64,000 nucleotides of DNA from Catajapyx aquilonaris (lineage: Eukaryota), in assembly GCA_000934665.2 (NCBI GenBank), contig JYFJ02000166.1:1-64000 (forward strand). Reading direction: 5' to 3'. The position numbers and the translations under genes are program-made. Shown here piece by piece: positions 3,001 through 42,919 of the stretch (positions within the stretch are counted from its first letter, which is position 1; every line of letters starts with the position of its first letter). The notes below the pieces were generated by a model that did not search any database, was not told the DNA's origin, and worked only from the letters and a program-made list of their open reading frames with translations.

Positions 3001-6000
3001 ATATTGCAAAAAGGCTGGTCGAACTATGCGCAGTTCTAATAATAATCGTGACATGTTGGCTCTATTCCTTGCGTTTATAAATCTAGTAGTGTTCCGCCCC
3101 AAAACGACAGCTCGCAATATATATTCCCCCTCCAGCCAGGTTACTCGTCCTTGGAGAGTTCCCCACCGCGAAGACAAGCTCTTCATGTTCCAGCTATTTT
3201 TTTGTTTTCTTCTCCCAGAATCCTTTTTAATTCCTCCTCCCCTAGCTCTTCCCCCACATCGCCAATCCCTCAGCCCCACCGCGTTTCCATTCACAATGAC
3301 TTCGATCTTCGCCCCAGAAAATGCATGAAGGGTATTGAGGGGTAAGGGATTAGGGGCTGGAGGGGGAAAACTTCCCTTACTTCCCCATGATCATCGGCGA
3401 TGTTGAAGCCTCGACATCACCGCCAATCGTTGCCCCGAGATAGAAAAATCCTAGATATGACGTCATCCAACTTCCCAATTGCAGGATCAGTTCCTGGGTC
3501 TGTGGGTTGTTATGAAAGCAGCGGGGTAATAGGACACTCCGCTGGTATACACACACACACACAAAAAAAGGAAGGGGTCGAATAATGGACCATATCGAAG
3601 CCCACAATGGAGTTGGCAGAAAAATTGAGCAAACGTATTTATAACAGAACTGCATTCGTGGTATTCAGGAAATCGGATTTCTCGGTCTGCGAGATGTGGG
3701 CTGGACTGAAAAGAATCTAGTCCGTGAGAAGGAGGTCCGCTTCCGAAGTGGTCTCTGGGTTCGAGGAGGTAGAAAAAAAAAGGAGGGGGTGGAGGGTGGG
3801 AAAAAAAATGGGGGAGGTGGAAAGACATCCCTCTTCCATTCCTCCCCTCAAACTCCATGGGGGGAGAAAGAGATGGTTGAGGGGGGAAAGAGAAAAGGTC
3901 CAGACAACAAGGGAGGTGACTAGTTGAAAACGAAATTACTCCAGGGCCAACTTACCCCAGGTTTGCCACGGGGAGGGGAACGAAACAACATTCGAGTTTA
4001 TCCAGCAGACACATCTGTCTGTTTTTGTTACTACTTCCCAACCATGGCCCCCACTGGTAGATTCCTCCACGTCAAGAGTATAAACACCGCCGTCCAATAA
4101 CAGTAATGAAAGTCGAAGGCACATTAGGCCAGATTGCTTCGGGATGAGGAGAGGGCATGCTGTCAGGGTCATTACCGGACCATGTACCAAAAATTTTCGG
4201 CACGACCCCCCTCGCACTTTCCGAGTTGGTATGCAGCATGTTGGTGCAATCCAAGTACCGCAATATAGAAGAAGCTTTACAACCAGCCCTTTGTTTCCGC
4301 CAGCACAATTTGATCCGGTTTTCTCCGTCACTTCACGAGTGGACTGCCTAGCCAAGCCAACCAGCTAACGAGCCCCGTGACGTCACTCGAAATGTAAAAT
4401 GTTACATGTACGATTCGGACTGTCTGTCACGCATCTACGACCTCGAAATAGAACCGGTGGAGGAGGAGGAAGGTGGTCCAGACAGCTTGGAGCAAATCTT
4501 GGCAACGTGGTCACGCAGCCTCCAAGTGATTCCGCATCAAAACTTGCCTTATTTTCCCCTGCCTCATCCTTCCTGGAGCGACCCCCAAATACGATCTGGC
4601 AACTCTTCAAGGTTGCCGCACCAGCTCTTTGCAAACATGCAGCCGCACAGTCCTTCCCCCCTTGGCCATTACCTCTCCCTCTTCTCTCGGGGAGGTGCCC
4701 AACAAAGGGATAGAAATACGACACCTCCTTATAGGAACACATTCCGGTCGACCCGACGGATTTTGACGGGGGAGAGAAGGCTTTTAAAAAACAGGTGACA
4801 ATGGCGACCTTGGTCCACCTGGATGTAAAACCCAGCGCTCCGGTGCATGACGACGCTTCCAAAAAGGTTTTTGCCGGGTCAGGCCTTCCTGTGGGGTCGG
4901 TCATGTTTCATCGGGGATCCTCCCCGGGGGTTGACACCTTCACCCCCTTTTTTTTCCACAGGGGACGCAACGTCGCATCGGTGCAATCTTCCCTAACAGC
5001 ATCCATCCCGTGCGTCAAATTTTGCTGCCACCCGGTATTGACAAGCCGTCAAAAAAAATACATTTCACCCCCCCCCCCCCCCCTCGCGTTCCCCCCNCTG
5101 ACCACCGAAAAACTACTGTCAAAAAATTGCTGCACGAAATCAACAGCTCCTGGTGCCTCAAACCCACCTCTGAAAAAAAAATAATTCGAGGCGCCCATTA
5201 CCACCAGTCTCCCGGCCATGCAAGCTGGTTTGGCCTTTTATCCAGTGACCCTTGCCAGAATCCCCAACCCATTCTTTCTAGACACATGAAAACTTCCCAC
5301 ACCATCATCCGTGACAGGCGGCACACGGAAATGGGAGTCTTCTGCTCAACTAGAGGGCCGGGCACGTACGCCCAAACTGTTAGCTTCCCAGAGAATTATT
5401 TTTTTCCAGGGGGATTACATTAAAATACCCCGGTGCAATTGGAGGAGCCGTGGCTGCATTCGAGACGGTGATGTGATGCAACGGACGACGGAGTCACGAT
5501 ATGCAGCCTACGCTCCTAAACCATTGCTGCATAACATATCCCCATCATATTTTTTTCCCCCATCTCCCGTCCTTTCCTTGTTCCTCCACCTTAGAAGCGA
5601 CCTTCTTCCTCACGTGAACTTCCTAATTCAGTCGCTTATCTAAAACGAAAACCCAATCTCCAAAACCAAGGCCACACAGCTCAAGTGGATTTGACACTCT
5701 AACATCGTGCTTGTATGCTCCAAGCATCAGGCGTCAAGATCATGCTATACAAGAGGATGCTTGAAAAATAATTTTTGTAAAACTCATTGCGGCGTACATC
5801 ATCTATCTCACTTTACAAAGTGGGGGAGAGCCTGCAATTGATGGCGTGGGTTGTCATTTCAAATCACTTTTGGCCCTTCCTGTGGCGCTAGAAATCCATA
5901 TCCAACAAACTGGAAAGCCATTATCACGAGTCCCTTTATTCCAGGCATGCACAGGAGGAACAAACAACTGCGGCAGGAACACAAAAGGAACCGGAAATGG

Positions 6001-8399
6001 TTAGGTCGTCACCGTGCCAGCTGTATGGAGTCCTGGGTTTCTCCCTTAATTGTTATTAATATACTTGGGTGTAGCTGTCAACCGCGCATCCATTCCCCGT
6101 GTAAACATTATTGCCTATATTGGCCTGGGATGACATTTAACATTATCATTACACGGTATCGATTTATACTGCGTCATTAAAATGCAACGTAAACTCGATG
6201 AAATGGAGAATGAAATTTTGATCGTCATGGCCCAAAGGCTTCATTCTGGATTATCCTCGCTGGCCATGTCAGGGAGCGAGAAATTAAAATAAAGCCGGAC
6301 GTTTACTCCCCAAGGCAATATATAAATAACAAAATAAGCCTCCCTTACTGTACTTATGAATTTTCATAATCCATGTATAGGTTCAGTAAATAGTGTGTAG
6401 TGGTCAAAGTGTCAGGTGACAAGAATGTTTTATAGTACTGCAGTAATCTGACGGATAAAAAAAAATTACAGGCTGGTCATTACACTGGAACAGCGAATCT
6501 ACACGGCTCCCTCAAAAACTAATTTTGCTCACGATAACTGCTTGGGAAACGTCGCCGTCAATTTCAGATATGGCATTAAAAAATGAAGTGAATGTGGCTC
6601 AATATCAATCTCTTAAATTACTTTCGACTCTACAATATTAATAGTCCAATGTCACCGAAAGAGCACTACAAGTCAACTCAGCATGACGCAATAACTGACT
6701 CGTGATAAGTAAAGCATTTGTCTACACACTTCTCAGGTGGATCCGGAATGTAAACAACGCGTGCCCTGTGAGGAACTCTGAGAAAACGCGATAGTACAAA
6801 TATAAATATTATTATATATATTCCATGATATGATATATTTCCATCTGTACTTTCACCTCGCAATCGATAAGTAAGTCATTGATCTGTCCGCACTGTGTCC
6901 GCAAGTCCTTTGCCACAAAACCCATTATACTGTACAATTACAGCATGTTCGGTTACCAGTAATTTATGTGATTCATAAACTCCAGCAAATTCAACATAAC
7001 CAACGCATAATGGAAAACTATTCAATTTCACGCCAACCCATGTTCGTGCTATCAAGTGCGTGGCAATCCAAAAAAATGCAATCAGTACACCCATGGAATT
7101 ATATTAAAAAAAAACGCAGCAAAAACCCGCGGCACGTTTTAAAGAACTAGGATCAGCTGTCTGAAGGACACCAGGCAACTCCACACACGGTCGGAAACAA
7201 GCCAAAGCCGCAATGGAAAACTCGGAATGAGAACTTTTTGTCCGACATCATCCGTACAACATATCGCGGGCCGCCAGAAGCATAAAACCGCGATTACCAT
7301 CGGCCCGCCATATAATACGGGCAGGCCAAGCGAAACTTCGGGGTCATGGAGTAAGTACAGCCCTTTTGAGTAAAAGCAAAATCCGATTACCACTGCGATT
7401 GCATTACACTTCCCCTCAAAACTGGTTCGAGCATAAAATAATGCGCACGTCCCGATGAACCCACAGCTGTGCATGTGTGTGAATGTGGGAGGAAGTAAGG
7501 AACCCACAGGCAAAACTTCAGACCAAACCAGCCATCGTGACAACACCGCCCTTGGAACCATGACTAATTTCTGCACCACCCTGTTATCTCCCGCCTGCAC
7601 TTTTTTTCGCTCTCTCTCTCGCTTTTGCTATTTCCAACCCAGGAGTGCGTTAAAAAGCGCGAAACAAAAAAAAAAAACCATTAAAAACTAGAAGGCAAAA
7701 GAGGGGTGAGGACCAAAAGCCTGCAATAACAGGACAGGCACTTGAAGCAGTTTGCGGTCTTCGACCCCCCCAACCCCTCTAATTTTTTATTCCATTTTTT
7801 TTCTATGCATTCTTTTGCAACCGAGGGCAGCCTACAGTCATCAAAGTTCGCGAATACTCAATCGGGGAATGATTTTTGCTCTTCACAAAATGTTCTGACC
7901 CATTACAGTAGTTGAACCCGATCACACGAGCCACGAGAAACGGGGCCAACAACCTAAACAACCAACTGACGCTGAGAGACATTCGCAAAATCGCCTCCCG
8001 GGCAAAAACAAGTGCGACTTGACCGATAATCATTATCCCCCCCCCCCCTGCGCACCTAATTCGCGGATGATAACTGTCCAGGTGAGCGTTAACGTTATGT
8101 TGCGAATGACGCTTCCAGAAATTTAATAAGCAAGAAATATTACGCAGCAGCTATAGATGTCGCCATGTAAGTCGTTGACAGTGGTTTCACCTTTCTCTTC
8201 AGGTGCTTAACTGCAAAGGATAACATCATGTGTGATGACCAATCTGACCGTGAAAGGACCCCACTGGGGCATATATTCTGCGCAATTCATTTCAAGTAAA
8301 TCACATACACTGCGCCATCGCGAATTCACCTGTCAATACGCCAGCTTCCTCATTTTGACACCGACACCCCCACTGAATACCAATGCTGCATGGCGAAGG

Positions 8400-8435
8400 A
8401 GAGAGAGAGAGAGAGAAGGAGAGATAGAGAGAGAG
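8400..8435. repeat. (GA)n microsatellite
   Basis: Interrupted gagagagagagagagaaggagagatagagagagag. Confidence 0.85.
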
Positions 8436-11400
8436 AAAAAAACCAACACTTTCATAATGTAAATTTCTCACGCAAGGGCCATTAGAAGGCCAGCAAGTCT
8501 CTCCCCCCATGTCAGACGGATATTGGTCGGCCTGCAAGGACAGTATATTCGGGCTAGCACAAACACTCCAAACGTGTTTACCTCACGGAAAAGTGCAACC
8601 GACCAGAGAGTGGGTGGACATAACTAACTTAATACCGAGCATAAATCGCCGTCCAATCGTATTCCACATCTCCCACCGCATCCTCCGAAAACGGAACCAG
8701 AACACCTTGGGGAGTCCGCAAACTTTTTCATACTAAAAAAAGGTCGTTTATCAACAACTTGTGTAAACACAAGGGTGGCAGTCTCCCCCTTCAGGAGGCC
8801 ATTGTGCCAACTTATTCCCCGAAAAGTGGTCAAAACGCACATGCGTAGTCATACCTAGCAACTAAAGATGATGTCTCGTTGGGGACAGCCTGTTTTGCTC
8901 ATGGCGGTACACCCCCACCACAAAAGATCCACATTTTTTTGTTGTTGTTGTTTCCCTCCAGTTCAATAATCAATGTGCTTTTGGTGGAATAAATTCCGGG
9001 TGCAAACATTCCCACTGGTCATGCACACTGCCAATGAGGAAGTCAACCGCTTCCATTGATCTGCTGGCAAAGTGGAGTTAATGAGTAATGGGCAAACTGC
9101 TATACAATGTAGTAGTACCGCCGCCGTGTACTGCTGGCAGCAAAAAAAATTGCAAAAAGACACGCAAATTAGCACGGCATTACCAAGTTCAACTTACACT
9201 TTTGAAATGAGCCAGGTTGGTGTTAAACCTATTTTAAAAGCAGATGTTTGAATGTCCCTTGGTGTGTTCACCACACTCTCTGCCTTCTTCCTCCAGAGCC
9301 AAATTTGCACCCACCCAAAAATAAACTCTTCCTATTACCAGTCGTAAGCGCGGCCAATGATCCGGATTTTGCAAACAATGTCTCCTAAAGGACTGAAGAG
9401 TCGTGGCCTTAGGAATGATTCAGATCTGTGACGTCCCGTATGTGCAGCAAGCGGGTCTACAACCTTGTCGTACCATACTTATATTAGCCACACGTTAGCA
9501 TTTGCTTTTTTTTATCTCTACAGCTGGTGTTCCGTCAACACCAGGCCATATAAAATGTAACGCCTACTAAAACAAAGGAACGATTTCGCAATGGGCTCAC
9601 AATGGTTAAACGCGACAGACAATGCGCGGATTCATTCCCATGGTACCAAAACTGGGAAGATTGTCACACTATTATACAGCCAGAATTATCGCATGTGCAC
9701 CCATCAAGTTAATTGCATTGGAATAATCACGTCAACCGACAAGGAAAGTGAATCTGGTCCCAAACATGCGTACGTACAGCAATTACCGCGACTTGTTCAA
9801 GTAACTGTTACTCGATCAACCTCTCGTACCGGGCAATATCATTAGTCAAGTGCAATTAACATTCACAACAATAATATTTTTTCACCCAGATGGCCCGAAG
9901 CAAAACAATCTGAAACTATGTCTTGTCTAGTACAAAGAAATCCGAAACATGTGAAGAGGCGGTTCTAAAGGTCTGCAAGAACCAGATGTTAACCTTGAGT
10001 TCTCTCTTTCCTCTTTTTTTTTCTTTGTCTTTCTTTCTCTGTCCGCGCCATGCCAGTGAACAATGATCGGAGGGGCCAGGTAGATACACCTGGTGGCTGT
10101 CAATTCGATCCCTGAAAGAGCAAGCGAACTAGAACTTAATTCATGATCTGGGAAGGGAAAGTACAGAACCGGGACTCGAACCCCTTTGCCAAACCCTCCC
10201 AAAAGCTGTCGAAACATGGTCTATTTCTGCAACTGAATGTATCCTGCCAGCCAGTGAACCGGTTTACCTCCCTTTTTTCCCTCTACATCCACCTTATTTT
10301 AATTCACTACAGTACACAACCGTACGCACTACAAGGTAATGACACAATTTGACTTTCCGCATACTGCACACAGGACGAAACAAGCTGTCAAAATGTGACA
10401 TTTTTCACTCCTTTTTTTCTTCTTCTTCAAAGCCCCTGAAGCACCTTCACACAACCCTGCTGCAGGGGGTGAAAAAAAAAAATCCAGTGCTAGTTCCAAC
10501 CTACGCGTTTCCAGCGTGCTTATTGACTACTTCCAACCCAGAGTATCTGATACGTCGCTTCCTGCCTCCTGGCAGATAGCATGTGACAAGCTCAACAATA
10601 TTTTGGCAACTGGGCTTGGAGGTTGAGGCTTTGGTTATGCCAGGTAACATATCGACATTCTCCTGCTTTATTTCTCTTTTTTTTTTTGTAAAATAAAAAA
10701 AGGAAGGCAAAGATGGCTGCTTTGCTACCAATTGTTGCGATTCTGGCAAGATGCCAGCACCTTACAATGTTCAGTCAGCATAGGCCCAAAATGCCTAAAA
10801 GCATGTGGGTGACGTCACTTTATTTGCACGTTGGGACTAGAGGCACTATTTCTGGGAACTAACGGGAACTGCCAGAACTTCCAATCTGGGTACAGTCACC
10901 GACGAAAGTTGTGACCCACGTACGCTGGTTGAGTAATGCTTAGATAACCAATTTGCACATTGCTAACATCCTCTCTCTAACGGCCTGAGAAGTATGAGGC
11001 AGCATATCAGCAATTGAGTGAACTCTGGGTCTAAAACCAGTTCTCTTGATAGCCCCATATCTACATATGTCTCAGCATCTACGCACTTATTTAGCAAGCA
11101 GAGCAGTCCACATTCCAGCAGCAAATTGCTATATTACTCCTGCTTTTGCCAAGTACCACTGCAGCCACTTCTATCTTTACTTTATTACACACAACTTGGA
11201 CTAGCTTTATAAATCCCAATATCACCATCATAAGCGTCCATAGCGACAATGTCCCTTTAAATAATGAAGAGAACTCATTGTCCATCTATTGTCATCTTTT
11301 TATCCCAACACAACTTGAACCTATTTTTTTAAAATCACTATTTTAATAATCAGTTTTTAAAGCCTGGCTTTGGCCTAGCTATGCTGCTTACATAATCACC

Positions 11401-15045: not shown

Positions 15046-16999
15046 ATGGCGGGTGCTTCGAACGTGGACGTCAAAAACGAGATCTCGTCCATGATGGCGA
15101 GCAGCTCCCGTTTGCGACGGAAGGTCCTTCTCTTCGCCAGCTTCACCCGACTTGCTGTACTGACAGCACAGGTTTGCATTAACTATAGTAGCACGGTGCA
15201 ATGTTCCACAAAAGTACTGTACTGAACAAGTGAATAATCCGCAGGCTTTGTTCAACCACACTGTTGAGGACCATGATGCTGATGCATTCAGGTCTCCTCG
15301 TGATCCGGATGAAATTGTGACGCCTGCGGACAAGTTCGTGGAGGGCCTGTTTGGCGGGATGGAACGTTGGGACGCACAGTATTTCATGCATGTGGCCAAG
15401 TATGGATACACCCATGAGAACACGCTGGCCTTTTTCCCCATGTTTCCGCTGCTCACGCATGTGCTGTCGTACATTCCAAGATTGTTTCTGAACGTGCACA
15501 GCTCTGTGCTTCTGTCCGCTGTGATTCTGAACCAGTTGTTGTTCGTTGGGTCGGCCCTGGCGTTGTTTGAGTTGGGCCAGGCTGTGCTGCTGGACGACAG
15601 AATTGCGTACAGGTTTGTGTTACTTGAGTTTATGCGGAACATATTCAACTGTTGCATGCATTTGCATTACAGGTCAGCCATACTGTACTGCATGAACCCA
15701 GCGTCTGTGTTCTTCTCAGCGCCATACTCCGAGAGCCTGTATGCATTCCTCACTTTCACCGGTATGCTGCTGAGTCATCGAGGATCCATGTGGAGCAGCG
15801 TTGTGTTTGGACTGTCCAGTGGCACCAGGTCCAACGGACTGATTAATGCTGGATACATCGCCTACCATGGGTTTATCTCCTCCGCGAACAGGACAATTTC
15901 AGACGTGTTGGCTGTCATGCTCCAGTTTGTCAACTGCTGGACTCCGTTCTTCCTCTACCAGCAGTATGCCTACCGACAGTTCTGCCGCATGCGGCCTGAC
16001 CCGGAGAAGCTCTTCCTTGCCAAATTCTGCACTGACAATGATTTTATGATGCGTGGAACTGTGCCATTTCCTGAGTGGTGCAATAAGCTGATACCGATTT
16101 CATACGGGCACATACAGAGCCACTACTGGGATGTTGGACTGCTCAGGTGTGATATTTTTGTGACAGTCTTTTGCTCTTTCCTAATAACTAACAATAAACT
16201 GGCAACTTTCTGATGCTCCTAGATCACACATCTTAGCAATAAAGTTGCCGCTTACTCCTATTGAGACTTTTGTTCCCTTCGCATAATTTTTGATGGTGAC
16301 TTACTGTATACAGTTCTGTAACGCACTGGACTAATTACAAACCATTTCACGTGTAACAGGTATTACGAATGGAAGCAGCTGCCTAATTTTGCTCTGGCCG
16401 CACCCATTTTCATCATCCTGGCTCCCTGCTTGGCATCTTTCATAAGGCGGAACCAGCGTCTATGCCTGACATTAGGTCTTAAGAGAGAGAAGTTCCCTAC
16501 CATTGACAGCAGGCTGCTGCCGTACATAATACATACCCTATGGATGCTGCTGGTCTGTTTGACCTACGTGCACATTCAGGTAGGATTTCCTTTAACATTT
16601 ATTCAATGTTCTGCTGCATCCTCACCTTCATATTTTGTGTGGACCTTTTTTTAAACAGGTAACCACAAGAATGCTGTGCTCAGCAACCCCTCTGCTGTAC
16701 TGGTTTGCAGCACAGATGGAAATCCCTAGTGTTCAAGAAGACTCGGATGATAAAGACAAGAAATATGCACTGGAAGTAAGACAACAACTTTTTCTCGGCA
16801 TATCTATAAAAAAACCAGACATTACAACACAACTGATTACTTTCAGGTGGATTCAGAGGAAAATCTGCAGAGTTCCTGGAAGGTGTTTGTGTTCACCGAG
16901 CGACCCTCATCACGAGCTGGAAGACTGATTCGTTTGTACTTTGTTTCGTACTTTTTCATTGGAACTGCAATGTTCTCTAATTTCTATCCATGGACTTGA
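15046..16999 (+). CDS. PIGV: GPI mannosyltransferase 2 (PIG-V), 6 coding exons, ~485 aa
   Basis: Exons 15046-15171, 15245-15612, 15673-16146, 16360-16579, 16659-16775, 16847-16999. All introns are GT-AG and the joined 1458 nt is open. PIG-V family motifs: RWDAQYF, ENTLAFFPMFP, NPASVFFSAPYSESLY, RSNG, IQSHYWDVGLLRYYEWKQLPNF, HIQVTTR, C-terminal NFYPWT*. Confidence 0.96.
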
Positions 17000-17832: not shown

Positions 17833-20800
17833 CTATGCGGCGGGCTTGGATCGAACCCCGAACACTTTACTGTTCCGCAACAAGTCCATCCTCTCGTATG
17901 CATACTGCAGTCTCGAGGCCAGGTCTTGACTGCACCCGTTTTCCTTGATGAGACTGAATCTGTAGGTTCGCACATTCTTGGCCCCATCTATGTAAGTTAC
18001 TGCACCCATCAGAGGGCAGAGGATGATCTTGGTGTGATCCCTAAAGAAGTTGACCTGCATGGTCCCATTGGTGAGGTGCATGACAACTGCACGGCTGGTA
18101 CGGAACCAGGTGCGCAGGAAGGGCATACGGGAGATCTCATCTCCATCGCGAGGTTGTATGGAGCCTCCAGCCTTCAGGAGGTGCTCAGTCATGTACCTCT
18201 GGAAGTAGTTGAGCAGGCGTACTTTCTTGTCCAGGGACGAAGGGTAGTGGTCCAGTGCGTGGAAGTTCTCAGAGTTGTCACGCTCAATGTACTGCAAGTC
18301 TCTGTGAAAAAAGAGTAAGGACAATCTCTTTGAATACAAGGATAACTCAAAGAAGACGCTAGTACATGTTAAGTAACTGTACAAGTAACTGATGCTCGAA
18401 ATTTGTTTCTGTCACAACACTACCTCGCAAATTTTGAAAAGAAAAAAACCTCGTCTCAAACTTAAAAGACTATTGAGCGTAACACAACAATGCTAAAACC
18501 ACTCACTTTCCGTTGCTGAGGAGCAGAAGCTTGGTGAGATCATTGAAGATGACCCCGATGGAGTCATCACACAGCTGGTAGCCAAATCCGTACTTGTCCG
18601 AGTAGTCGACCCACTTGCTCACCCACACAACCGGTACAGCAGCAGGATCCTCAGCCTCATCTAGAAATTCAGTTGTATTAGGAACATGCCCAACAAATAT
18701 GAAATGGTGCTACTCTCCACACATTCCTCGTCATCTCAATATTACTGGGCCAGTGGTGAGCCTACTACTTGCAAATGGGAACCAACACTGAACTCGGTTT
18801 GTCACAGAAACAAGTCCACCAGGCTTGATGGGTCCCTTACCCGAGATATATGAGAATAGGCCACAAGTCACAAACAAGTGGACAGCATCCGACAGACAAT
18901 ATTGTAAAAGCTTTGCACCAAAACTGTATAAGCGGAAGCTACTGAATTATCATTGGGGTAATACAGTACAGAATTGGTGCAGCGCTATCATTCAAGGCAT
19001 ACGACACTTTTTGCCAACTGTTCTGTACCTTCCATGATGATTTCTTTCTCTGATGGCTTGGCAGCAAGCAATGATGACAGCTGCTGAGCCAGATCTCCCA
19101 GATAGTAGTCAGTGGCCTCCTTGGTCACTCCTGGGTTGCTGCTAGGCTTGATTGGGGACCCCCTGTAGGGCTGGGGCGGCCCTGGACCCACGGCTGGTTC
19201 TGGAGCATTCACCGCGACTTTCTTCATTATGACATTCCCATCCGATTCAGCTGCAAATGAGTACCAAGTTTATAACAACCGACGGGGGAAATGGAAATGA
19301 ACAGCCAGCAACAATGCTTTGGCTGCACAGCTAGTAGCAACTCACTCATGCAGGAAATGCCAAAAGCAGCAGCTATAATATCATTCAATGTTGTTCAATG
19401 CTCAGTGCCAATGTTGCAACGGTGTGTCAAGGCATAACTTTTGGCAATTATTAGCTTGATAGAAATTAATCCGTGTTTGTGTATTTGAAATGCGAAAGAC
19501 AGTTAACTACAAAATATTTACTGCTTCAAAGTACCAATGCCATTCCCCATTTTGTATTCACTGCACACTGCAGATATCCATACCCATGGCGTTGATCTCG
19601 AGCAGTGGCTTCCTGGGAGCAACGTTGACCACCCGGGAGTCAAACCTCGGTGCTATAGTAAGGCAGGAGACAGGCAGCCTCGGAGGGCAGTAGCCCAGAC
19701 TGAGGAATTCGTCTGCAAGGGCCTCTGTCACAGTTGGCCGCTTGCTGGGATCAGGCTGGAGCAGGCGGTTGATGAAGGAGCGGGCCAGTCCCCCGACGCG
19801 AGATGGGATGTGGTACTCATTCTTCTTGATGCGCATGTACGTCTCCTTCAGGGTCTGGGTCTCAAAGGGAGGCTTCCCCACCAGAAGGGTGTACAAGATG
19901 CAGCCCACTGACCACATGTCCACCTCAAAGCTGTGCCCCTTCTTGCCGAGGACCTCGGGGGCAATGTAGTTGGGAGTGCCACACAGGGTGCTGTTCACAT
20001 ATAAAAGTGATGCTCAAAATAATATCCAATGATATTCAAAAATTTAATACAAGCCACCTAACAGCAAGATTATATCCTACATATGAACTAGTAAGCATAA
20101 ATCATCCTAAACCGGCAAGAATTTCGGTAGTTGTCGGTCGTTTACCACAAAACATGACTGTGCATTTGCTACTACTCAAGCAGTAATAGCATCTGTTGCT
20201 TCCCTGTTTGATCAGTGCGCGCAAATATTACTTTATTGTGCCATTAAATAAACATGATCTGCTATCAGTAAATGACCTTCCTTGCAAGTCAACTTGGATA
20301 TGCTTAACCCTGAGCCCAGCATTATCTGATAACTGCAACTCACGGACAACTCAGAAAACGTAGCAATGATTACAAGTTACAGCCACATACACTCTTCTTT
20401 CGCGTTTAAAATGACTTCACTTTTGCTATCACTGTCATGATGCCTTGATTATAAATGGGCCCTTGCAGACGGGCCAAGCTTGGCCGCGGCCCTGGCCAAT
20501 TTCCAGGAAGTTGGCCAACCTTGTAAGCCGTGGCTTGCCAGGTGTGAACCGTGGCGGCCTCGACCAGCCGCGGCCAGCCACGGCTAAGCTTGGCCCGTCT
20601 GCAAGGGCCCAATGACAATGGTGACAACATTATTACCTTAGCTCTTAGCAGAATCATAGTTCAAGAGACTAATGGCTAAAAAATTATGGATATGAATGTT
20701 GCAAATCATGATCATGCTCAATGGCATCACAAAATCTGAGACACTTTTAAAAAATTTAAATGGTAGGGACTAACCGCTTCCTTTCGCCATCATAATCTAT

Positions 20801-23702: not shown

Positions 23703-26700
23703 ATGGCGTCTGTTCCATTGGCGGAGACTCGTCGTCGGAGGCAGAAGTGGACTCTGAACCCGAGGGGAGCGGTGTGGCTCACAGGTATACACGCCGGGTT
23801 GGAACAGGGAGACGAGAGGGAAGGACCTGCGGGGGCAAAGAGAGTCGAAAGGAATGGTTTCGGGGAGACCGAATGGAAGTGTGGTGGGCAGGGGTGCAGG
23901 GGAGGGAGATGGAACAGAAATGGAAGAAGGGGGGGTTAATTATTGATAGTTATGTAAACTGTGAGGGGAAGGAGTTATGGATATTGAGGTAACAATTTCC
24001 ACCTTGAATGTGCTTATCGCCATTTCGATTTTATGTTATGCAGTAGAACTCCGATCATCTAACCTCGGATTTATCCAACTCCTCTGCCTATCCGACCGTC
24101 CCACTCCGGAAATATAACTATTTTTCTCATCAAATACTGTAATGTACTACCTATTTGTTTCGCATTGCTTGAGTGTGAAGTACAGCTACAGTGTCTGTAT
24201 GTATTCATGTCATTATTTTCATTATCATCCTATCCATTGTATCCTTTGCGTGGCCTGACCAGTCACCAGAGGATTCATTATACTGGTCGTACGAGATGGC
24301 CAGGTGGATTGTACAGTGTTGGACATTAATCGAGGCATGCTGCTCTCGACATTTTCTGAAGGATAGTGCAATCCGGGCGAGCAAGATTCCTTCTTCTGCC
24401 GCTTCGGAAAATGTCGCTAGCAGCATACCTCGATTAATGTCCAACACTATACAATCCACCTGGCCATCTCGTACGACCGCTATAATTAATCCTCTGGTGA
24501 CTGGGAATATGCTGTGAGTGACAAAAGTTACAGTAGAGTGTGTAAAAGATAAATGCTTCACTATTTCTTACGAAACCATAATATTGTATGTTCATGTTTT
24601 CATGCGTTTTTTTGTTGTGGTTCATTCAAGTTTTCTTAGCTCCTCGTATTAGACAACCTTTTTTGTGTTCCGACCATGCTCCGGTCCTATGGGTAACTCA
24701 TAAATAGAGTCCTGATTTTTAGGCACGAAAAAACCCTGAAATTGGCACGAAAGAACCTCGAATGGGCACAAAAAGTTAACTTTTTTGGACATGTGGAGGA
24801 TAATGTTACAGAAAATAAAAGAGCCAGAATAATTTTATATGCCTAAGGTATATAAATATAAGGTCACAAACCAGAGCAAAAATCGAATAACACCGATAAA
24901 CTGACAGAAAATCACAAAACTTGGGCAAAAGACACAAAGTGCAAACAAGCATCACTTGCTCTGGACTCGTACGCTTATAGCCAATTTCCACTTGAACCAT
25001 ACTTGCACAATATGTTGTCAAATATTTAGCATACATGTCACGGAAACATGATTCGTATTCCTTCTGAACGATGTTGGTCCTTTCAGGGGCACAAAATAAT
25101 ACTCCTCAAAAAACCAACAATGAAATATGCCTCAGAGGGAATAGGCCTGGAATAGGCCTGGAATAGGCCAAAAAAGTTCAGAAATTACTGCAAAAAGTTC
25201 AAAAACTATCCCAAAAAAGGCCAAATAGGCATGAAAAGTCGCAAAAAGGCAGAATGGGCAAAATAGTTCCCAAAACCACGAAATATGCCATTTTAGGCAC
25301 TATAAAACCTACCTTTTCCACATCCTGCACTTATGAAACGGATAGATCTCTTCACAGAACCATCCCAACTGTTAAGGAACTAAATAGGCATTTGCCTAAA
25401 AATCCGGACTCTACTGATAAACGACGTTCTACTGTATTAGTTATATTATCGAGATGGTGTTGCATACCCTACCTTTGGAACAATGCCATGAAGAAATGAA
25501 TGACTGAGAGTTATATTCTGTTATGTTAGTTACATTGTTGTTATATTAAGTTACGTTATGTTTCCAGTTGAAAAGTAGCCTTACAGCCTTAGCTGACTAC
25601 CAACTATTGGCCTCTACTTGTTTCTATCGGAATGTAGGAAAATGAGTTATGAGCGTAAAATCTACCGTTACAATGAGTCCATTTTGATCGGAAAGGGTAT
25701 AAATTTTGTGTGATTTTTAATACAAACTTGTGGTTTTTAGTGTCAAAAGAATGATAGAGCTGCAAATATTTTCATGAATCGTTTGTTTCAGATACTAATG
25801 GCGTGGGTCAGCGAATGCTGCAGAACATGGGGTGGAAGCCTGGGCAGGGGTTGGGTTCGAAAAATCAGGGGATGACAGAGTCTCTACGTGTTACTACAAA
25901 AAATGACAACAAGGGTGAGGGAGCACCAAAGACAAGGATCTGATATCTGATGATTGCAAAATGTGGTGGAGTATACTAAAGGGAAGTTTTCTTGTAGGGG
26001 TAGGCTACTCTGGAAATAATAACGATGGCTGGCACCAGCAAGAATTCAACTCACTGTTGCGACAACTCAATAAAGACAACGGAGGGCCAGAAAAGCCAGG
26101 GGACAAACCTGAGAGGTTGGAGGAAAGGGCCAGGAAGTCTCGGGCTCGTGTTAAGTGAGTGTTACAAATGTAGAAGTGTCTTACAATGTATGAATATAGA
26201 AGGCATGTTTTTATAAATTAACCTTACTGGTTATAAATGTAAGTCATGTACAGCATATATCAGTATCTCTCAATTATTTGGACCATTAAAAGGAGTTCAA
26301 TGAAAGCGTTTATGGTGATTAATCTGTTTAATCATACATGCTGCAAGGTCATTGCCGGTCAAAGCATTTGCATTCATTTTATTATTCTATTGCAAGAGAA
26401 GCACACTCGATGCAGTAATCCCTGTGGTTACCTACCAATCATTTCAGTACTGTCGAAGTAAAAACAGTGTGTAGAGAGGAGAAAATTGCCTTGATGCAAA
26501 ATACTATTACAAATGATTGGATTGTAATTTTTACAATTTTTGTACTGCAGGGGGTGAGAGGTTCAATTGAGGCTTTGATGAATATTTCCCAAGTCATTTC
26601 AGTCTCTCAGCCTTTGCACCATAATTACCATTGCCACCAATATATTTAAAACCCATGCATGAGGTATAGTTAGTCTCGCTAAGTATTATGAAAAATATAC

Positions 26701-29700
26701 GTGAAGTGAGAATTCTCACCAGCAAGTTTGATCTCACCTAATTTGTCCACTCACAAGTCGGTGCTTTAATAAATTTCTGCGAATTGTCCAGCAAGTGACA
26801 GCAGAGTTTGCTCTATGTATTGACCAATACAAAACACCATTGCTGCAGCGCATGGCATCTCTGCACTATTATAAGGCAGAGAAGGCCCTGACCAGCGGCA
26901 GAAATTTTATCCATTGCATCCTGGTTTTGACCAGACAAATTGAGTGGGATTGAACAAATTGGTAAGAATTCTCATTACGATGCAGCATAGTGTTTGGCTG
27001 GGTGGCATGAGATGGGGAATGATGGGTTGATTACTGGCTAATAATACCCTAATACAGGAAGTACCAGTCAGGTACCAGTATTACGCCGCTCCATTTTACA
27101 CTGTTTCACGTTAACCCTGGTTTTAAAATTACACGTTTAAAAATTTTATCGGGAATATTTGAAAAATTTGAAGATAATAACAATCTAAACATAAACACAT
27201 TTCTGCAACACTTCTGAGTCCAAACACACTCGGAAGCGAACGGGTGGTCCGCCCCTGGCGGACCACGATGAAAGGGACTTAGAGTGATGATATAGGCCCT
27301 ATGTGGGGCCCGGGGTTTAAGGACCTACATGGTCTGGAATAACCCCGTTAATATCTGACGAAGTCCAAACACACAGCCGTAGAGGCTGTTCTTTTGTTTT
27401 TCCTGGTGCCTTGTGGCAGGTTCTATCGATATACAGGGTGATCCAACTCTATGGCACCAACAGTTATTGGAAAAATTGCACAAGCTGCTTGTTTATAAGC
27501 AGGTCGTTGCTAAGAGGTGCTATTCCTGATACTCCAGAAAGTATCTCTTAGCAAGGACCTGCATAAACAAGCAGCTTGCGCGATTTCTCCAATAACTGTT
27601 GGTGCCATAGAGTTGGATCACCCTGTATATAGTATCGTATTGTTAGTCTTGGCACTCCCCAAAGTACTCCAACCGTTGTTAAATACCCAACGTGTACTGC
27701 AATTCTTGCCAAAATAAGGAAAGGAGACCTCAGAACCCCGATGGTCCTCAACCTGGAACCTCCCATTAATCAATCTGTCAAATATTCAGCATAAAACAGC
27801 ATTAGTACTGCCTATGGAAATATTGTGGAAATGTTGGACCCTCTCTCATGTATCAACGGTTCAAAAAGAATTGTCCCTCGCGTCGAGCGGGCAGCCACGC
27901 GTCAGGATGAAAGCAACCAGTTAACTGGTTCCTTTCATCCTGACGCGTGGCTGCCCGCTCGACGTGAGGGACAATTCTTTTTGGACTGATGATACTTATA
28001 TTATAATTTTATCTCGTTTTACTCTGATTCACTTTCCGCCATGTTTTGCTGGAACCTGTAATAGGGCATTAGCACCTTGAGAGTGTTAGTAATTTTCCAG
28101 TTCTAACATGCAAAGCCCAATTTTGATGAATGTTCCTATTCCCAGCTATCGTAAGATGCTACAAGCAAAGGACCTGAGTTCCCGCAGTGAGAAGGACATG
28201 GCCGCCATCTTTGGCCACAGAGTGCTACAGGCAGAGGACAGCGCTGAAGGAGGGAGTGAGTCCAGCATCACTGGGAAAGAGGAAACATCTCATGGAGTCA
28301 CCACTGTCCACCGAGGATCTGTTCATGACTACTTTGCTGCCAAGATGGCTGCCAGAAAGAGGCGAGCATCTGGAGGAGGAACTACCAAGAGGAAGAGGGC
28401 AAAGCAGGAAGAGGAAGAAGATGCTAGTGATTCAGAGAGTGATGTTTCAGTCGGAAAGGATGAGAAGAAGGTAAGTTAGGTTCTTGAGGGATTTTAGCTG
28501 TCAAAGTAAAGAAACTACCGTATTACCTCACTTAAAGCGGCATGCTGGTGTAATCGAGGTATGCCAGTATAAGGCGAGGTTTTCTTAAGCACAGCATTAT
28601 CACAATCTCTCTGAAAAAATTATTGTTAATCAAATGAATGTATTACACCATGTTCTACGGTGGTCGGTAAATGGCGGACAAGCTTCAGGTAGCGAGATTC
28701 CTTGTGAAAAATCAGTACATGGAAGTGAAGGTCATATTGCTCTACGAGGCCTGGTTAGGGCTCACGAGGCCTCCAAAGTTTGGGCCAAATCATGACGTCA
28801 CATCCGCCCGCGAAATTCAAACACTACCGTATCGCTACCGTACGCGGTGTGTTGCTAGGCGCTGCCATGTTGACATCTACCACATGTTCACCAAACAATG
28901 GAACCGTATAAACTCGCCGGGACGTTGCCAGGAACTCGGCGACGACGGCATGGCAATGCCTGGCAACGTCCCGGCGAGTTCATACAGTTCCATTGTTTGG
29001 TGAACATGTGGTAGATGTCAACATGGCAACGCCTAGCAACACGCCACGTACGGTAGCGATACGGTAGTGTTTGAATTTCGCGGGCGGATGTGACGTCATG
29101 ATTTGGCCCAAACTTTGGAGGCCTCGTGAGCCCTAACCAGGCCTCGTAGAGAAATATGACCTTCACTTCCATATACTGATTTTTCACAAGGAATCTCGCT
29201 ACCTGAAGCATGTCCGCCATTTACCGACCACCCTGTATACAACCTAGAACACTTCTATTGCCTGACACATCCCCTGAGCAACAGTTTCAATTAAGAGTGC
29301 AATGCTGCAAGAAGGTAAGTATACATACCAGGATATTTCATACATTGGGTTTGGATTTTATTATCTGAGTAACGAAGCTTTTCAGATATACAGGGTGTAA
29401 ATGAATTCAGCCGACAAACTTGTAGGGGTAATAGAGGGGACCAAGACAAACATATTTGACATAGGAAACCGTGTCCGGAAACGCCATCTAGAGGGGGTTC
29501 ATAGATGAGGAACGGGTGCGTTCAGACGTGTCAGGCTGGCGGCGTTAGCGAGCGGACCGTTTAGTTGCTAGGTGGCAGGCGGATTGTACACACCTTCGCA
29601 TTTCGCCATAACCTGGCAACAACAGAGTTGTTGTTTATTATCTGCGCGCTACCTAGCATGCTGACTTTACTTGCTAGGTGGCTCTGTTGTTGCCAGGTTA

Positions 29701-32700
29701 TGGTGAATTGCAAAGTTGTGTACAATCCGCCCGCCACCTAGCAACTAAACGTCCGCTCGCTAACGCCGCCAGCCTGACGCGTCTGAGCGCACCCGTTCCT
29801 TGTCTATGAACCCCCTCTAGATGGCGTTTCCGGACACAGTTTCCTATGTCAAATATGTTTGTCTTGGTCCCCTCTATTACCCCTACAAGTTTGTCGGCCG
29901 AATTCATTTACACCCTGTATTGATACCACTATGCCTTTTGCATCAGATGAACTTGCATATTCTCACAGCCCTGTAGGCCTGTGCTCACACAATTTTCACC
30001 ATAACATTATGTTAGTACAGTACCAGATGCATTTCAAAAAATTTGACAAGGATCAAAATTATGGAAATCTACCCCTGTTATTGCGGCATACCGGCCACCC
30101 CCGGGTTATACCGGCATGCTGGTGGACCTCATTTTATACCAGCATGCAGCTTTCAGCAGGGCCAGACTTTGGCCTAGGCAAACTAGGCAGCTGCCTAGGG
30201 CTCCAGCTACGGAGAGGGCTCCTGGCGCCGAAGGCACTTTTTAAAATTATTTTGAAAACGCCGAACTAATTATATTATTAGTGTGAGTACAATCTCAGCT
30301 AAATTATAAAATAATTAGCTGTTACATTTTGTCACCATTTCTTGAAGTTGAAGAGTTACTGAAAATGCAAATCGTAAACTTGTAATTAAATGTCAGTTAA
30401 TTTTATAATGTGTGTAAAAAGGTACTTTTCGACAGTGCCAGCACGTGGGGGGGGGGGGGGGGGGGGGNGGGGGGGGAATGGCCGCCCCGCCTCTTGGGTT
30501 TGTACGATGTGTACCTTTTGTAGAGGTACACTGTTATGAAATTAGTATGTATTTTTGGCGTCAATTAGCAAGAACCTTAAAAATTAAATTTCGAGTTCTA
30601 GGTGGGGAGGCACTCATGGAGGTGACCCTGAGTTAGAGACGCAGCCCCCCTCTCTGGGCCCCAAAATTAGTAGGGGGCCCTGCTGAGGCTGTGTTGTATC
30701 ATGGATTTACTCTAATGCAACAGCCGAATCAGCCTCCCATACTATTCATTTGAAAAATAATTGAAAAGTGTTTGACCGCAAATATCTCACAAATAAAAAG
30801 TCCAAAATATTCATGCAAAGTGTCATTGGAGACCTTGTTTAAATATGTGTATCACATAAGAATGGCCACATTTGCTCTGATTCACAAATTAGAAAAGTTT
30901 TGTCATGGCCCTGCGAGATGAAGCCTATTTGAGAATTTCTGGGGAAGTAAATGTTCAATCTAAAAATTTCATTTTAAACCTTTGATGGTGCTGACATTTT
31001 CAGGTCGGCCTCTGGCTTTATGATGGTGTTATTTACGATTGTGTAATTGTAATTAAGACAAGAAAACCCAGGTATCATGTCTATTTGCAGTGGATTTTTT
31101 TTTTTTTTTTTTGTCAATTTCAATGTCAGAGTTGGGGCATTACTTCAGGCACGATAATAAAGTTATTTCTGGAAAATTTCTGGGCTGACCCAACCAAATT
31201 AGGCCATGTAGTCCATCAATTGACGCATTTTTGCAATATACTAATACTGTAGGCTACATAGTCGCATTGTCTTCACTCTTGCCTCCCCTTCCATCTTCTT
31301 ATCCTTTTCCTACCTCCTTTTTCCATGGCAAATACACAAGATAACTGGGTTTTGGTTCTGTCTTAATTACAATTAAATGATCACAAATAAGGCAATTGGA
31401 GAACCGAAGTCTGCAGCGAAAACGTTGGACCCATTGATAGTTAAAAAGGCAATTGTTTTGCTTGAAATCATTTGTAACAATGAGTCATAGAGCAAGGCCA
31501 GCTAAAATTTATAGCCTACTTTTCTTTCTCCATTCTCCGAGAAAAATTCGAGCTAGTAATGTAGTCTACTGGTATGTATAGGAATATAGGTGGATAAAAA
31601 TAGGATCTCGGCGGGCACCCGAGTTTGCCGTCCACCATCGCCTCTCCCACTTGAAGGTCAAAGTATGTTCAATAAAAATTAAGTTTTTAAAATCTATTAT
31701 AAAAAGGGGGGCCTGACAGGGCCCGACTTGGTTAACCGCCTGGGGGCCCCGGGGGCCTCAAGTTCGGCGCTGGCTTTAAGTGAGGTAATACGGTACATCA
31801 GTAAAAATCTAATGAGGTGGAAAATGTGTGTAACGCTTCCTGTGCAAAAGTCTGTTACTGTATATTCTATCAGTGGATTTTTTAAAGATGCAGCTGTTCT
31901 ATATACAGTGTATGTATACTCTATGTACATAAGTTAATTACCTATCAACCAGTTTTATGTCCTGTCTTAAGTGCATTGCCAGTAGGAAACTTGCCCACCA
32001 TTAGTACAGAATATGTGCTTTTAAGTACATTTATTGCAACAGCAGCTACAACTCTGGCCTTCCTTGTCTGGATTCTTTCCCTTACAATAAGTTATCTTCC
32101 TGTGCATTACTTTATTACACTGGCCCATTGGGAAACTCTGTGTGCCACAGAATAGTCTTTTAAAGAAAGGTGAACCCGTCAGGTCTCGATTTGTCAATTT
32201 GGACCAGATTTTGTCAAAGCTTCTATATTACTTTGTTGCCTGTAATTCAATAATGTGCATGCAACAACGAGGCAGGAAGATGGGCTAGGTATGCAGCAAA
32301 TGTTAAAGCTTTTTTAACTGGTTTATAGATGCCAAAGAGACACATTGTAACTTAACAACGCGGTCGGAGTTGGGCGGGCGGGGGGGGGNGGGGGGGGGGG
32401 GGGGGGGGGGGGGGGCGGCTCCCGACGCGGCGGTTGGCAACGTTGCGCCGCAAACAATCGGATGCCTTGATACTGCTGCCAGCCAAATTCGAATGCCTTC
32501 AGGGTTGCTTGATGAAGTGTCATTCTTTGGGTTAACGGACTGCAGCAACCATCATGGCTTTCATATTTCCCACCTCCTTCATTAATACTGTGGTCCCAGC
32601 ACTCGTCAGATCGGTTCGCGTGGCAGGGGTAACAAGGAGCCCTTTGTTGTGCTCTCCCGGAAACCGATTGTTTGCGACCGGTAGCCAACATGTTTGGAGC

Positions 32701-41380: not shown

Positions 41381-42919
41381 TTGATTTATTATTACACAGT
41401 TCGGGGGTGTTGTTTTTTTTTGGAACAAGCGCGGGGGGGGGAGGGGGGGGTGTGTACACACACTTTCAAAAAAAAAAATTAAGAAAAAAAAAAATAAGGG
41501 GGGGAAAAAACAAACCGGGGATTCGAACAGTGTGTAGTGGAGTTAATCACATGGGCTTGATGACCGGGTCCAAAATGGACGGTTGTGGCGGTAGTGTGTG
41601 GCGGATCGGTGTCCCCTCATGATACCAAAGGGAAGATGCCAAGGAAGGGTAAACCCCAAGGTAAGGGTTTTGTTTGTTATAATAGTGTGAGGGGGGGGCA
41701 AGGGTAAACAAAGAGTAGGGGTGGGGGGCGTCACTCCCACCCCCTGCCCTCCCCACTGCAAACCTCATGTCTGTGTTTATGATGACAAAAGTACACATGT
41801 ATACATGTCCAGTGGGCATGTGCTTGGGTGGGTTCAAGCATGGCTTCTCCTTACCAAGCAATTGTTTGCTAAGAATGGGTTAAAACACATTAATCTGATT
41901 ATTCTGACATAATGTAGCGACATCTGACCACTAGCCAGTCGGTGTTAAGTTTCTTTAGTGTTGCTGTGGGATGACATTGTTGCCGTTAGGACCGTGAATG
42001 CCGGATTGTGTCAATGTATGCAAAGGTTTTTATGGCTTGCATTTCATTTTTGGTTGTTTGACAGCAATGAAATGTGGACAGTCAAGACTTGACTGACATG
42101 GCACATGTTTCACGGTGGGGTAGTTTTTCAATGCTGCTGATTTGTTGTCAAAAATTAATAGTGAGTAAAAACCTTATCTGAGTGCGAAACCTACTTGTGC
42201 ATGGATTGTGGCCTATAATATTGTCAATGATAAAACAACACCATCGCGACATTGCCCTATAAGGGGTAGTCAGCGATGAAGGGAGACTCAAGTTAACTAA
42301 TGTCAATAATGGAGTGGATTATTTTAACAATGTGTGTGCAGACATGAGGTTAATTTTGGAAGTAAAAGCGAAGTTTTAAAATTGCACCTGGTTGAATACA
42401 TTAACGGATGCTATTCGTTGTTTACTAATAATTTCCAACAATAACATCAGGGATTTTTAATGTGTCCAAGTTGGTGCAACTGGCCTAATTTTATAGTGAT
42501 AGTATTTTGATAATTGTTCATGTAACTAACAATCTGTTGTCGCCACTCTTGTTCTGGCTGTTCCAATTGCGAGACATGGCAGCATTGCCCAATAAAGTTG
42601 GCAACATATGAACTGCATTGTAAATGCCTTTTAGAAGCAAGAGTTTGACAAACCCATGTGATATTCAGGTAGGAAGAAGCGACACTTATGTATTTTTGTC
42701 AGTACGTAAAGTAAACAAAACGTTGATAAGAACCTGATTGTTGCGTAAACAGCAGCCATGCACGAAGCAAAGTTAACTGTGATACTCCCATGTGTGGTCA
42801 TCCGTTTTGGCCGTAGTAAATATTTAGTACATTTGTTTAAGCTTAGCTGTTATACAGCAGCAGCTACATTGTAAGGTTGCAGAATATAATCATATCAAGT
42901 CTAATACGTTGCTTAATAG

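Follow-up and report, generated by a model that had tools for sequence, protein, structure and literature searches.

A dispersed repeat with a box C/D snoRNA-like fold in an intron of a Catajapyx aquilonaris G-patch gene: a candidate family of tailless retrocopies

Results and Discussion

The locus

The first 64,000 nucleotides (nt) of contig JYFJ02000166.1 in the Catajapyx aquilonaris assembly GCA_000934665.2 (forward strand; hereafter the window) include a G-patch gene, two exons of which lie on the + strand on either side of an insert between 13-base-pair (bp) direct repeats. The insert is therefore intronic and in the sense orientation. An original prediction, made from the sequence, had described it as 132 nt long and folding into a kink-turn (K-turn)-closed junction with kissing loops, and had offered three identities for it: an atypical small nucleolar RNA (snoRNA), a mobile structured RNA, or an unrecognised ribozyme or switch. 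The features on which the analysis turns are listed below with the evidence that places them.

25758–25940, + strand: open stretch with the G-patch exon of a PINX1/PXR1-like host gene; Pfam PF01585, 62.5 bits.
27070–27800, no strand assigned: older repeat hosting the insertion, borders approximate; word depth, paralogous contigs and contig joints.
27217–27229, + strand: left copy of the direct repeat, read as a target-site duplication (TSD), AGTCCAAACACAC, part of the older host repeat; repeat search, and contig joints in 4 of 4 runs.
27230–27368, + strand: the mobile element proper, ∼139 nt (132 nt if a 7-nt overlap is counted as target); contigs.
27244–27266, + strand: 10-bp GC-rich hairpin (GGTGGTCCGCC...GGCGGACCAC) in a 46-nt 5′ extension; minimum free energy (MFE) fold.
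27275–27282, + strand: terminal (canonical) stem, 5′ strand GGACTTAG; sequence, MFE fold and pattern scan.
27284–27290, + strand: box C, GTGATGA (RUGAUGA); sequence, pattern scan and Rfam snoZ157 alignment.
27295–27310, + strand: hairpin A, GGCCCT-ATGT-GGGGCC; MFE fold.
27311–27347, + strand: hairpin B, CGGGGTT..GGACC-TACAT-GGTCT..AACCCCG, where the element's word depth peaks (bin 27305–27351); MFE fold.
27355–27358, + strand: box D, CTGA; sequence, Rfam alignment and pattern scan.
27359–27366, + strand: terminal stem, 3′ strand CGAAGTCC, its last 5 nt within the right repeat; sequence and MFE fold.
27362–27374, + strand: right copy of the TSD, the first 7 nt of which (AGTCCAA) are the 3′ end of the element; repeat search and contigs.
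28093–28479, + strand: open stretch with a downstream exon of the same gene (...KDLSSRSEKDMAAIFG...); open reading frame (ORF) listing.

Empty sites point to a target-site duplication

The two copies of AGTCCAAACACAC are set 145 nt apart, start to start, and are the sole exact 13-nt direct pair found by a repeat search of positions 26500–28200. We aligned contigs from four sequencing runs, made from two samples of DNA of the same organism, to positions 26600–28000. All four runs contain a contig joint that passes from 27216 directly to 27362 with 13 overlapping letters. The contigs joined in this way are paralogues of the surrounding repeat that lack the insert and have the 13-mer only once. 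They are therefore empty sites, and the pair of 13-mers around the insert is thus a true TSD. The insert is in all probability a mobile repeat, and the predicted insert and its flanking repeats stand where they had been placed. A circular-RNA or tandem-unit origin of the direct repeat was also considered and is ruled out, as the empty sites give the 13-mer as the host repeat's own.

Word depth leaps from ∼40 to thousands at 27070, which indicates that the sequence around the insert (∼27070 to ∼27800) is itself a repeat, and many diverged paralogous contigs of this region were recovered. Joints within it skip either 137–155 nt, corresponding to the insert (five further listed joints at the insert site, all in diverged paralogues), or 200–231 nt, corresponding to a foldback at 27429–27630. 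This foldback resembles a miniature transposon and is likewise inserted in the host repeat. Its 68-nt arms are 96% complementary, it is skipped by paralogous contigs with joints 27436→27637 and 27433→27665, and its word depth (up to 57,600) is the maximum of the stretch. In Rfam it gives sub-threshold matches to plant and animal microRNA (miRNA) precursors only.

Extent, copy number and dispersal of the element

The insert is a dispersed element, sharply bounded at its 5′ end (27230). A 411-nt contig from the second sample (run X5) aligns to 27230–27368 with two differences and one gap, between flanks unrelated to those in the window. Contig matches start exactly at 27230, and run X3 has loose ends ‘before 27230’. 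At the other end, the second copy, a single contig, aligns through 27368, which is 2 nt beyond the terminal stem. The most likely 3′ end of the element is thus ...CGAAGTCCAA, the first 7 letters of the duplicated target being equal to its last 7. Such an overlap between the 3′ end of the element and the target would account for the fact, confirmed here, that the right repeat forms part of the closing stem (AGTCC), which had seemed odd for a simple TSD.

One contig of 1,869 nt (depth 39.8) covers the single-copy flank without any difference and extends to 27259, 30 nt inside the insert. This end point is as expected from a graph of 31-mers if all words lying wholly within the insert are common to other places in the genome. 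In run X1, summed word depth is ∼40 in the flank (26600–27069), 4,063–8,850 in the 5′ bins of the element (8,850 in the bin 27258–27304) and 21,397 in the bin 27305–27351. The element therefore stands at 100–540 times the depth of the single-copy flank; summed word depth is not a copy number, and it is the order of magnitude that suggests hundreds of copy-equivalents. The 3′ half is deeper than the 5′ half, as would be expected from 5′-truncated retrocopies.

The sole variant reaching at least 10% of depth in 27199–27397 is a T inserted after 27257, on the edge of the loop in the GC hairpin. With so few variants at that level, the family is very uniform, although part of this uniformity may reflect the collapse of identical words in the contigs. 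Neither the element nor its host repeat has a second copy elsewhere in the window, and a 21-nt piece of hairpin B had no exact match in metagenome, viral or prokaryote genome contigs.

The + strand folds into a junction closed by a box C/D K-turn

On the + strand, the MFE fold of the insert has an energy of −63.4 kcal/mol (z = −5.12), and none of 200 dinucleotide shuffles was as stable. The − strand fold is weaker (−54.0 kcal/mol, z −3.2). The original prediction had argued that the G-U pairs favour the + strand, and the stronger + strand fold is consistent with the G-U and U-G pairs of hairpins A and B counting on that strand. Overall, the + strand fold comprises the 10-bp GC hairpin followed by a three-way junction closed by a box C/D K-turn, and the predicted GC hairpin, stems, bulge and hairpins A and B are all present in it at the positions listed.

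Read from the sequence, the K-turn has the order G-C closing the canonical stem, 3-nt bulge, tandem G.A/A.G, U.U and G-C. A27283 and box C provide the bulge (AGU), the tandem G.A, the U.U and the G-C. The terminal stem GGACTTAG/CGAAGTCC has one A.G mismatch, and the non-canonical stem is extended by four AUAU/AUAU pairs. The canonical C/D geometry that had been claimed is complete by position. We scanned both strands of the window for RUGAUGA followed by CUGA 30–130 nt downstream, requiring 6 or more pairs in the flanking stem and 3 or more in the non-canonical stem. The insert was the only site, and no site was found in 60 first-order Markov shuffles.

The fold model thus carries the exact signature of a box C/D snoRNA: boxes C and D, the K-turn and a canonical terminal stem. 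The distance from stem to stem, 92 nt, is also canonical for this class. Mature C/D snoRNAs end ∼2 nt past the terminal stem, and the element end at 27368 fits this.

Two further C/D-like signals in the window are both within chance expectation. At 41779–41904 (+ strand) there is a RUGAUGA...CUGA pair with a 7-bp flanking stem and hardly any non-canonical stem, and at 26255–26341 (− strand), antisense to the G-patch gene, there is a weak Rfam match to snoR11 (23.5 bits, E 1.2).

The loops of hairpins A (AUGU) and B (ACAU) are complementary over 4 nt, as had been noted. A kissing contact between them would nonetheless be unlikely on geometric and steric grounds, given that only 4 nt are complementary, that one loop is itself 4 nt long and that the hairpins are very unequal in length (6 bp versus 7+5 bp interrupted by internal loops). 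The proposed re-pairing of hairpins A and B into one longer helix was also examined. A 9-bp helix of this kind exists, but the resulting fold of the 92-nt core is 14.6 kcal/mol worse (−22.4 versus −37.0 kcal/mol), so that it does not compete.

These results bear on the suggestion that the mobile element carries a self-cleaving ribozyme or a ligand-sensing switch, which we consider extremely improbable. The junction is compact and highly stable, as such an RNA might be, and the GA-rich motifs CGATGAAA and CTGACGA presumably recall the hammerhead core. Against this, neither the surrounding 5 kb nor the 151-nt piece alone gave an Rfam ribozyme or riboswitch match at E up to 10, and the alternative helix that a switch would use is the uncompetitive one just described. 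Hand placement of hammerhead and hepatitis delta virus (HDV)-like cores failed on either strand: the hammerhead motifs (in the order CUGANGA, helix II, GAAA, helix III, cleavage triplet) appear to fit neither strand, and the 14 nt that precede the first hairpin would be too little for an HDV-like 5′ ribozyme.

An RNA-mediated origin is favoured

Several classes of source and mechanism were searched for. No inverted repeat was found between the ends of the element, which speaks against a DNA transposon, and its sequence contains no poly-A or simple-repeat tail. ARAGORN found no tRNA in 26000–29000, and Rfam gave no match to 5S, 7SL or small nuclear RNA (snRNA) at E up to 10 in either the 5 kb or the 151-nt piece. 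The lack of terminal inverted repeats and of a tail, the 13-bp TSD, the strand-asymmetric fold and the 3′-heavy depth together favour an RNA-mediated origin, driven by a long interspersed element (LINE), over cut-and-paste transposition. We consider an RNA-mediated origin probable.

The competing explanation, that the insert moved as DNA, either as an atypical miniature transposon or in the course of repair or template switching, gains something from the neighbourhood, which is rich in foldback and miniature elements, and from the fact that an RNA intermediate is something we infer, a point that also counts against our own interpretation. It has to contend with the missing inverted repeats, with a structure that is asymmetric between strands and includes G-U pairs, and with word depth skewed to the 3′ end. 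A TSD of 13 bp is moreover longer than those of the known cut-and-paste superfamilies. We regard a DNA-mediated origin as very improbable.

The insert has the marks of two kinds of retrocopy. Like a short interspersed element (SINE), it is small (∼139 nt) and dispersed, with high word depth and a 13-bp TSD for which empty sites exist. Like a tailless retropseudogene, it has no A tail, a TSD, and 7 nt of identity between the target and its own 3′ end (as delimited by one contig). The interpretation that we prefer, with a probability of roughly 60%, is that it belongs to a tailless, SINE-like family of retrocopies of a ∼139-nt RNA resembling a box C/D snoRNA. Of the identities first suggested, that of a mobile structured RNA, a SINE or retrocopy without poly-A, is the one borne out by the empty sites, the very high word depth and the copies in other sequence contexts. 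Spread as a mobile element is an unusual but not unprecedented route for a small RNA in an animal genome.

Limits to the resemblance to a snoRNA

A number of observations weigh against this interpretation, in addition to the limit on depth as a measure of copies given above. The fold was read base by base from this one copy, and the element end at 27368 is given by a single contig (run X5). RNA polymerase III A and B boxes were not found, the best matches on the + strand having 3 mismatches of 11. The 46-nt 5′ extension would not be expected to survive on an RNA trimmed by a small nucleolar ribonucleoprotein (snoRNP); by analogy, it may be more in keeping with a C/D RNA that has a 5′ domain and is transcribed independently than with an intron-trimmed snoRNA.

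The remaining points concern the C/D module itself. The Rfam search that had been proposed as a check, run on 27225–27375 alone with lax filters, returned one structured match. This was to a C/D family, snoZ157, and ran end to end over 27275–27366 on the + strand (E 0.15), but its score of 19 bits is far under the gathering score of 55, and other snoRNA families gave no match. The snoZ157 match is a generic C/D signal and not family membership. The interval from box C to box D lacks an exact TGATGA or CTGA that could serve as a C′ or D′ box; the nearest candidates are CTGG and an upstream CGATGA, each with one mismatch. In the MFE fold, the sequence preceding box D is base-paired as part of hairpin B.

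Complementarity to ribosomal RNA (rRNA), another check that had been proposed, was assessed with 112 metagenomic large-subunit (LSU) rRNA loci around the sarcin-ricin loop, covering approximately the 3′ two thirds of the LSU; small-subunit rRNA, the 5′ third of the LSU, snRNAs and the organism's own ribosomal DNA and spacers lay outside the comparison. No perfect complement of at least 11 nt to any part of the element occurred in the 112 loci. The only conserved perfect complement was the 9-mer GACTTAGAG (27276–27284; element nt 47–55), present in 49 of the 112. It cannot be extended to 10 nt, it lies in the terminal stem beside box C and outside the guide positions, and it is probably due to chance. 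When G-U pairs and one mismatch were allowed, guide segments had no advantage over shuffled sequences when compared with 40 of the 112 loci: the best scores upstream of box D, upstream of the D′-like CTGG and at the 5′ end were 14, 13 and 15, against shuffled maxima of 13–16. Within the LSU regions compared, a role in guiding rRNA modification is unsupported.

Taken as an atypical snoRNA, the insert thus keeps the fold, the K-turn, the terminal stem and the size, and shows neither exact C′/D′ boxes nor, in the LSU loci sampled, an rRNA match above shuffles. This matters for a second explanation, in which the PINX1-like host carries the insert as a functional intronic gene for a box C/D snoRNA. 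The snoRNA would be freed from the intron after splicing and serve as a methylation guide or chaperone, and mobility would be history only. The insert's position in the sense strand of an intron and its canonical boxes and terminal stem are as that explanation would have them, and retroposed snoRNA copies in sense introns can be processed faithfully according to passages in Weber (2006; PMC1687206). This copy could in principle be excised in the same way as an intronic snoRNA. However, it is one of very many near-identical copies, for any one of which the sense orientation has even odds by chance. Neither C′/D′ boxes nor a guide match in the LSU loci sampled was found, and the insertion lies inside another repeat and looks recent, with a perfect TSD and few differences from the other copy. 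We consider a working snoRNA gene quite unlikely.

Alternatively, a partner LINE could have supplied the C/D-like module from its own 3′ end. In this explanation the insert is a stringent-type SINE whose 3′ module, the K-turn and two hairpins, was copied from the 3′ untranslated end of the LINE and serves as the recognition structure for its reverse transcriptase, the likeness to C/D RNAs being convergent or a borrowed K-turn. Passages in Kojima (2020; PMC7245038) describe the 3′ parts of SINEs as usually derived from partner LINEs. The lack of poly-A, and the failure to find guide complementarity or C′/D′ boxes, would be in keeping with such a source. So would the depth profile, since the hairpin B region is the deepest (21,397, against 4,063–8,850 in the 5′ bins), as expected if the module were shared with other families or with the LINE; 5′ truncation accounts for this gradient equally well. 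On the other hand, the C/D motif is complete to its last defining position, including the terminal stem that flanks the boxes, and did not occur in any of the 60 shuffles. The window contains no LINE with a similar 3′ end, and no reverse-transcriptase domain was found in the 30 ORFs of at least 144 amino acids that were scanned with Pfam (129 ORFs have at least 90 amino acids). Derivation from a LINE tail is, on balance, unlikely.

A proposed route from structured RNA to tailless copy

If the insert is a tailless retrocopy of a C/D snoRNA-like RNA, its layout suggests how it could have arisen. The 5′ 46 nt would be an extension carrying the GC hairpin, and the 3′ 92 nt a C/D-type K-turn closing a two-hairpin junction. 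The source RNA may have been stabilised as a snoRNP-like particle, with Snu13/15.5K on the K-turn; packaged in this way, it would lack poly-A and have a fixed 3′ end ∼2 nt beyond the terminal stem. Copying by a LINE-type reverse transcriptase could then proceed by target-primed reverse transcription, with the nicked target annealed to the 3′-terminal ∼7 nt (AGUCCAA) of this RNA, and staggered cleavage would produce the 13-bp duplication. The 7-nt overlap between TSD and 3′ end is the arrangement expected from target-primed reverse transcription of an RNA without poly-A. The RNA intermediate, the bound protein, the source gene and the partner LINE are elements of this scheme that we infer. Daughter copies may themselves act as sources, as in a true SINE, or one master gene may have given rise to all copies, as with retropseudogenes.

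A more speculative version, which we think rather unlikely, is a promoter-less ‘snoSINE’ that would rely on the box C/D snoRNP pathway for its expression. Any of its copies lying sense in an intron would be released and stabilised via the K-turn and so become a new source gene. The tail-less 3′ end would then be reverse transcribed through microhomology priming. Such an element would be a self-sustaining small-RNA parasite of the ribosome-biogenesis machinery in an invertebrate lineage, unlike SINEs driven by RNA polymerase III.

Comparison with known retroposed small RNAs

The retroposons of small nucleolar and small Cajal body-specific RNAs in mammals (snoRTs) are the first point of comparison. 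As described in parts of Weber (2006; PMC1687206), their TSDs are ∼14 bp long, with a distribution peak at 13–16 bp, and they often lie in sense orientation in introns, at sites common to other mobile elements, from which they can be processed again. The same source gives them an A-rich tail, an L1 TTTT/AA target and from tens to about 150 copies per snoRNA. The element resembles them in being a snoRNA-type retrocopy with a 13-bp TSD, sense in an intron. It differs in its lack of an A tail, its non-A-rich target, a depth that suggests hundreds of copies, and its invertebrate host.

Tailless retropseudogenes, or ‘tailless SINEs’, are retrocopies of structured small RNAs that have TSDs and no oligo-A, as described in passages of Noll (2015; PMC5322556). 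In these passages they are therian and L1-driven, derive from tRNA, snRNA, 5S, 7SK and mRNA, and are 3′-truncated at A-rich sites that are internal and single-stranded; the RNA region that becomes the 3′ end of the copy has its complement in the target site. The 7-nt overlap of the element matches this complementarity between target and 3′ end. Unlike in the tailless retropseudogenes, the 3′ end of the element is the expected mature end of the C/D module and not an internal breakpoint.

The platypus family snoRTE/PlatSINE1 (Schmitz et al. 2008, as cited in parts of PMC5322556 and PMC7245038) is a chimera of a snoRNA and an RTE LINE 3′ end, with ∼40,000 copies. The element is comparable as a high-copy, SINE-like family with a snoRNA-type RNA part, but a LINE tail is not recognisable in it, and its 3′ end is formed by the snoRNA-like module. 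The snoRNA in the platypus family is reportedly of the H/ACA class.

In the U3, U8 and U13 RNAs, a ∼50-nt 5′ domain precedes a structured domain that a C/D K-turn closes. Their transcription starts at a defined position, and vertebrate U8 is near 140 nt long. The layout of the element resembles theirs, and a transcription start would explain the sharp 5′ end at 27230. Rfam gave no match to U3, U8 or U13 at E up to 10, and the conserved U3 boxes were not seen in the element. A survey of the literature by titles and abstract openings, with Repbase outside its scope, contained no report of a tailless C/D-based repeat family in invertebrates. The combination of a C/D module with taillessness, an apparently high copy number, a 5′ extension and an invertebrate host appears to set the element apart from these precedents.

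If the preferred interpretation is right, abundant mobile families can arise from snoRNA-type RNAs outside mammals, with neither poly-A nor a fused LINE end, which would widen the known sources of SINE-like repeats. The element would also be a natural case in which to study how a nuclear RNA that is coated with protein and not adenylated gains access to a reverse transcriptase. For genome annotation, hundreds of near-identical C/D-like copies would cause false calls of snoRNA genes.

Host gene and other features of the window

That the element is intronic and sense agrees with the original prediction; the name PINX1 that it gave to the host is plausible but unconfirmed. For the G-patch exon, the two best sequence matches in the PDB are SUGP1 (E 8e-7) and yeast PXR1 (E 2.2e-6), which fit this name and do not settle it. 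We take yeast PXR1 to be the PinX1 orthologue. The motif KDLSSRSEKDMAAIFG in the downstream exon (28093–28479) is presumably PINX1-like. Protein searches with the exon translations found no relatives. For this PINX1-like gene the insert is most likely neutral intronic baggage.

Other foldbacks occur nearby. At 27850–27995 there is a near-perfect palindrome of two 73-nt arms without a spacer, 93% complementary and with a word depth of up to 35,000. It has a sub-threshold Rfam match to MIR845_1 (48.5 versus 81 bits) and is probably another foldback repeat rather than a miRNA gene. Two long hairpins at 28883–29008 and 29595–29715 have sub-threshold Rfam matches to miRNA precursors (mir-228, 30.9 versus 45 bits; MIR4371, 41.5 versus 110; MIR1861, 37.3 versus 88) and are likely to be further foldback elements in the same gene region.

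Elsewhere in the window, a 349-amino-acid open stretch at 15164–16210 (+ strand) encodes most of a PIG-V glycosylphosphatidylinositol mannosyltransferase (Pfam, 169 bits). Its best relatives are arthropod proteins at ∼40% identity, and the organism therefore has no close annotated relative in the protein collection. Exons of a Polo-like kinase lie on the − strand at 17836–18411 and 19561–20013, with a POLO box and a protein kinase domain that each score 88.3 bits. Single isolated N letters stand at 5097, 30468, 32389, 41265, 49302 and 59462.

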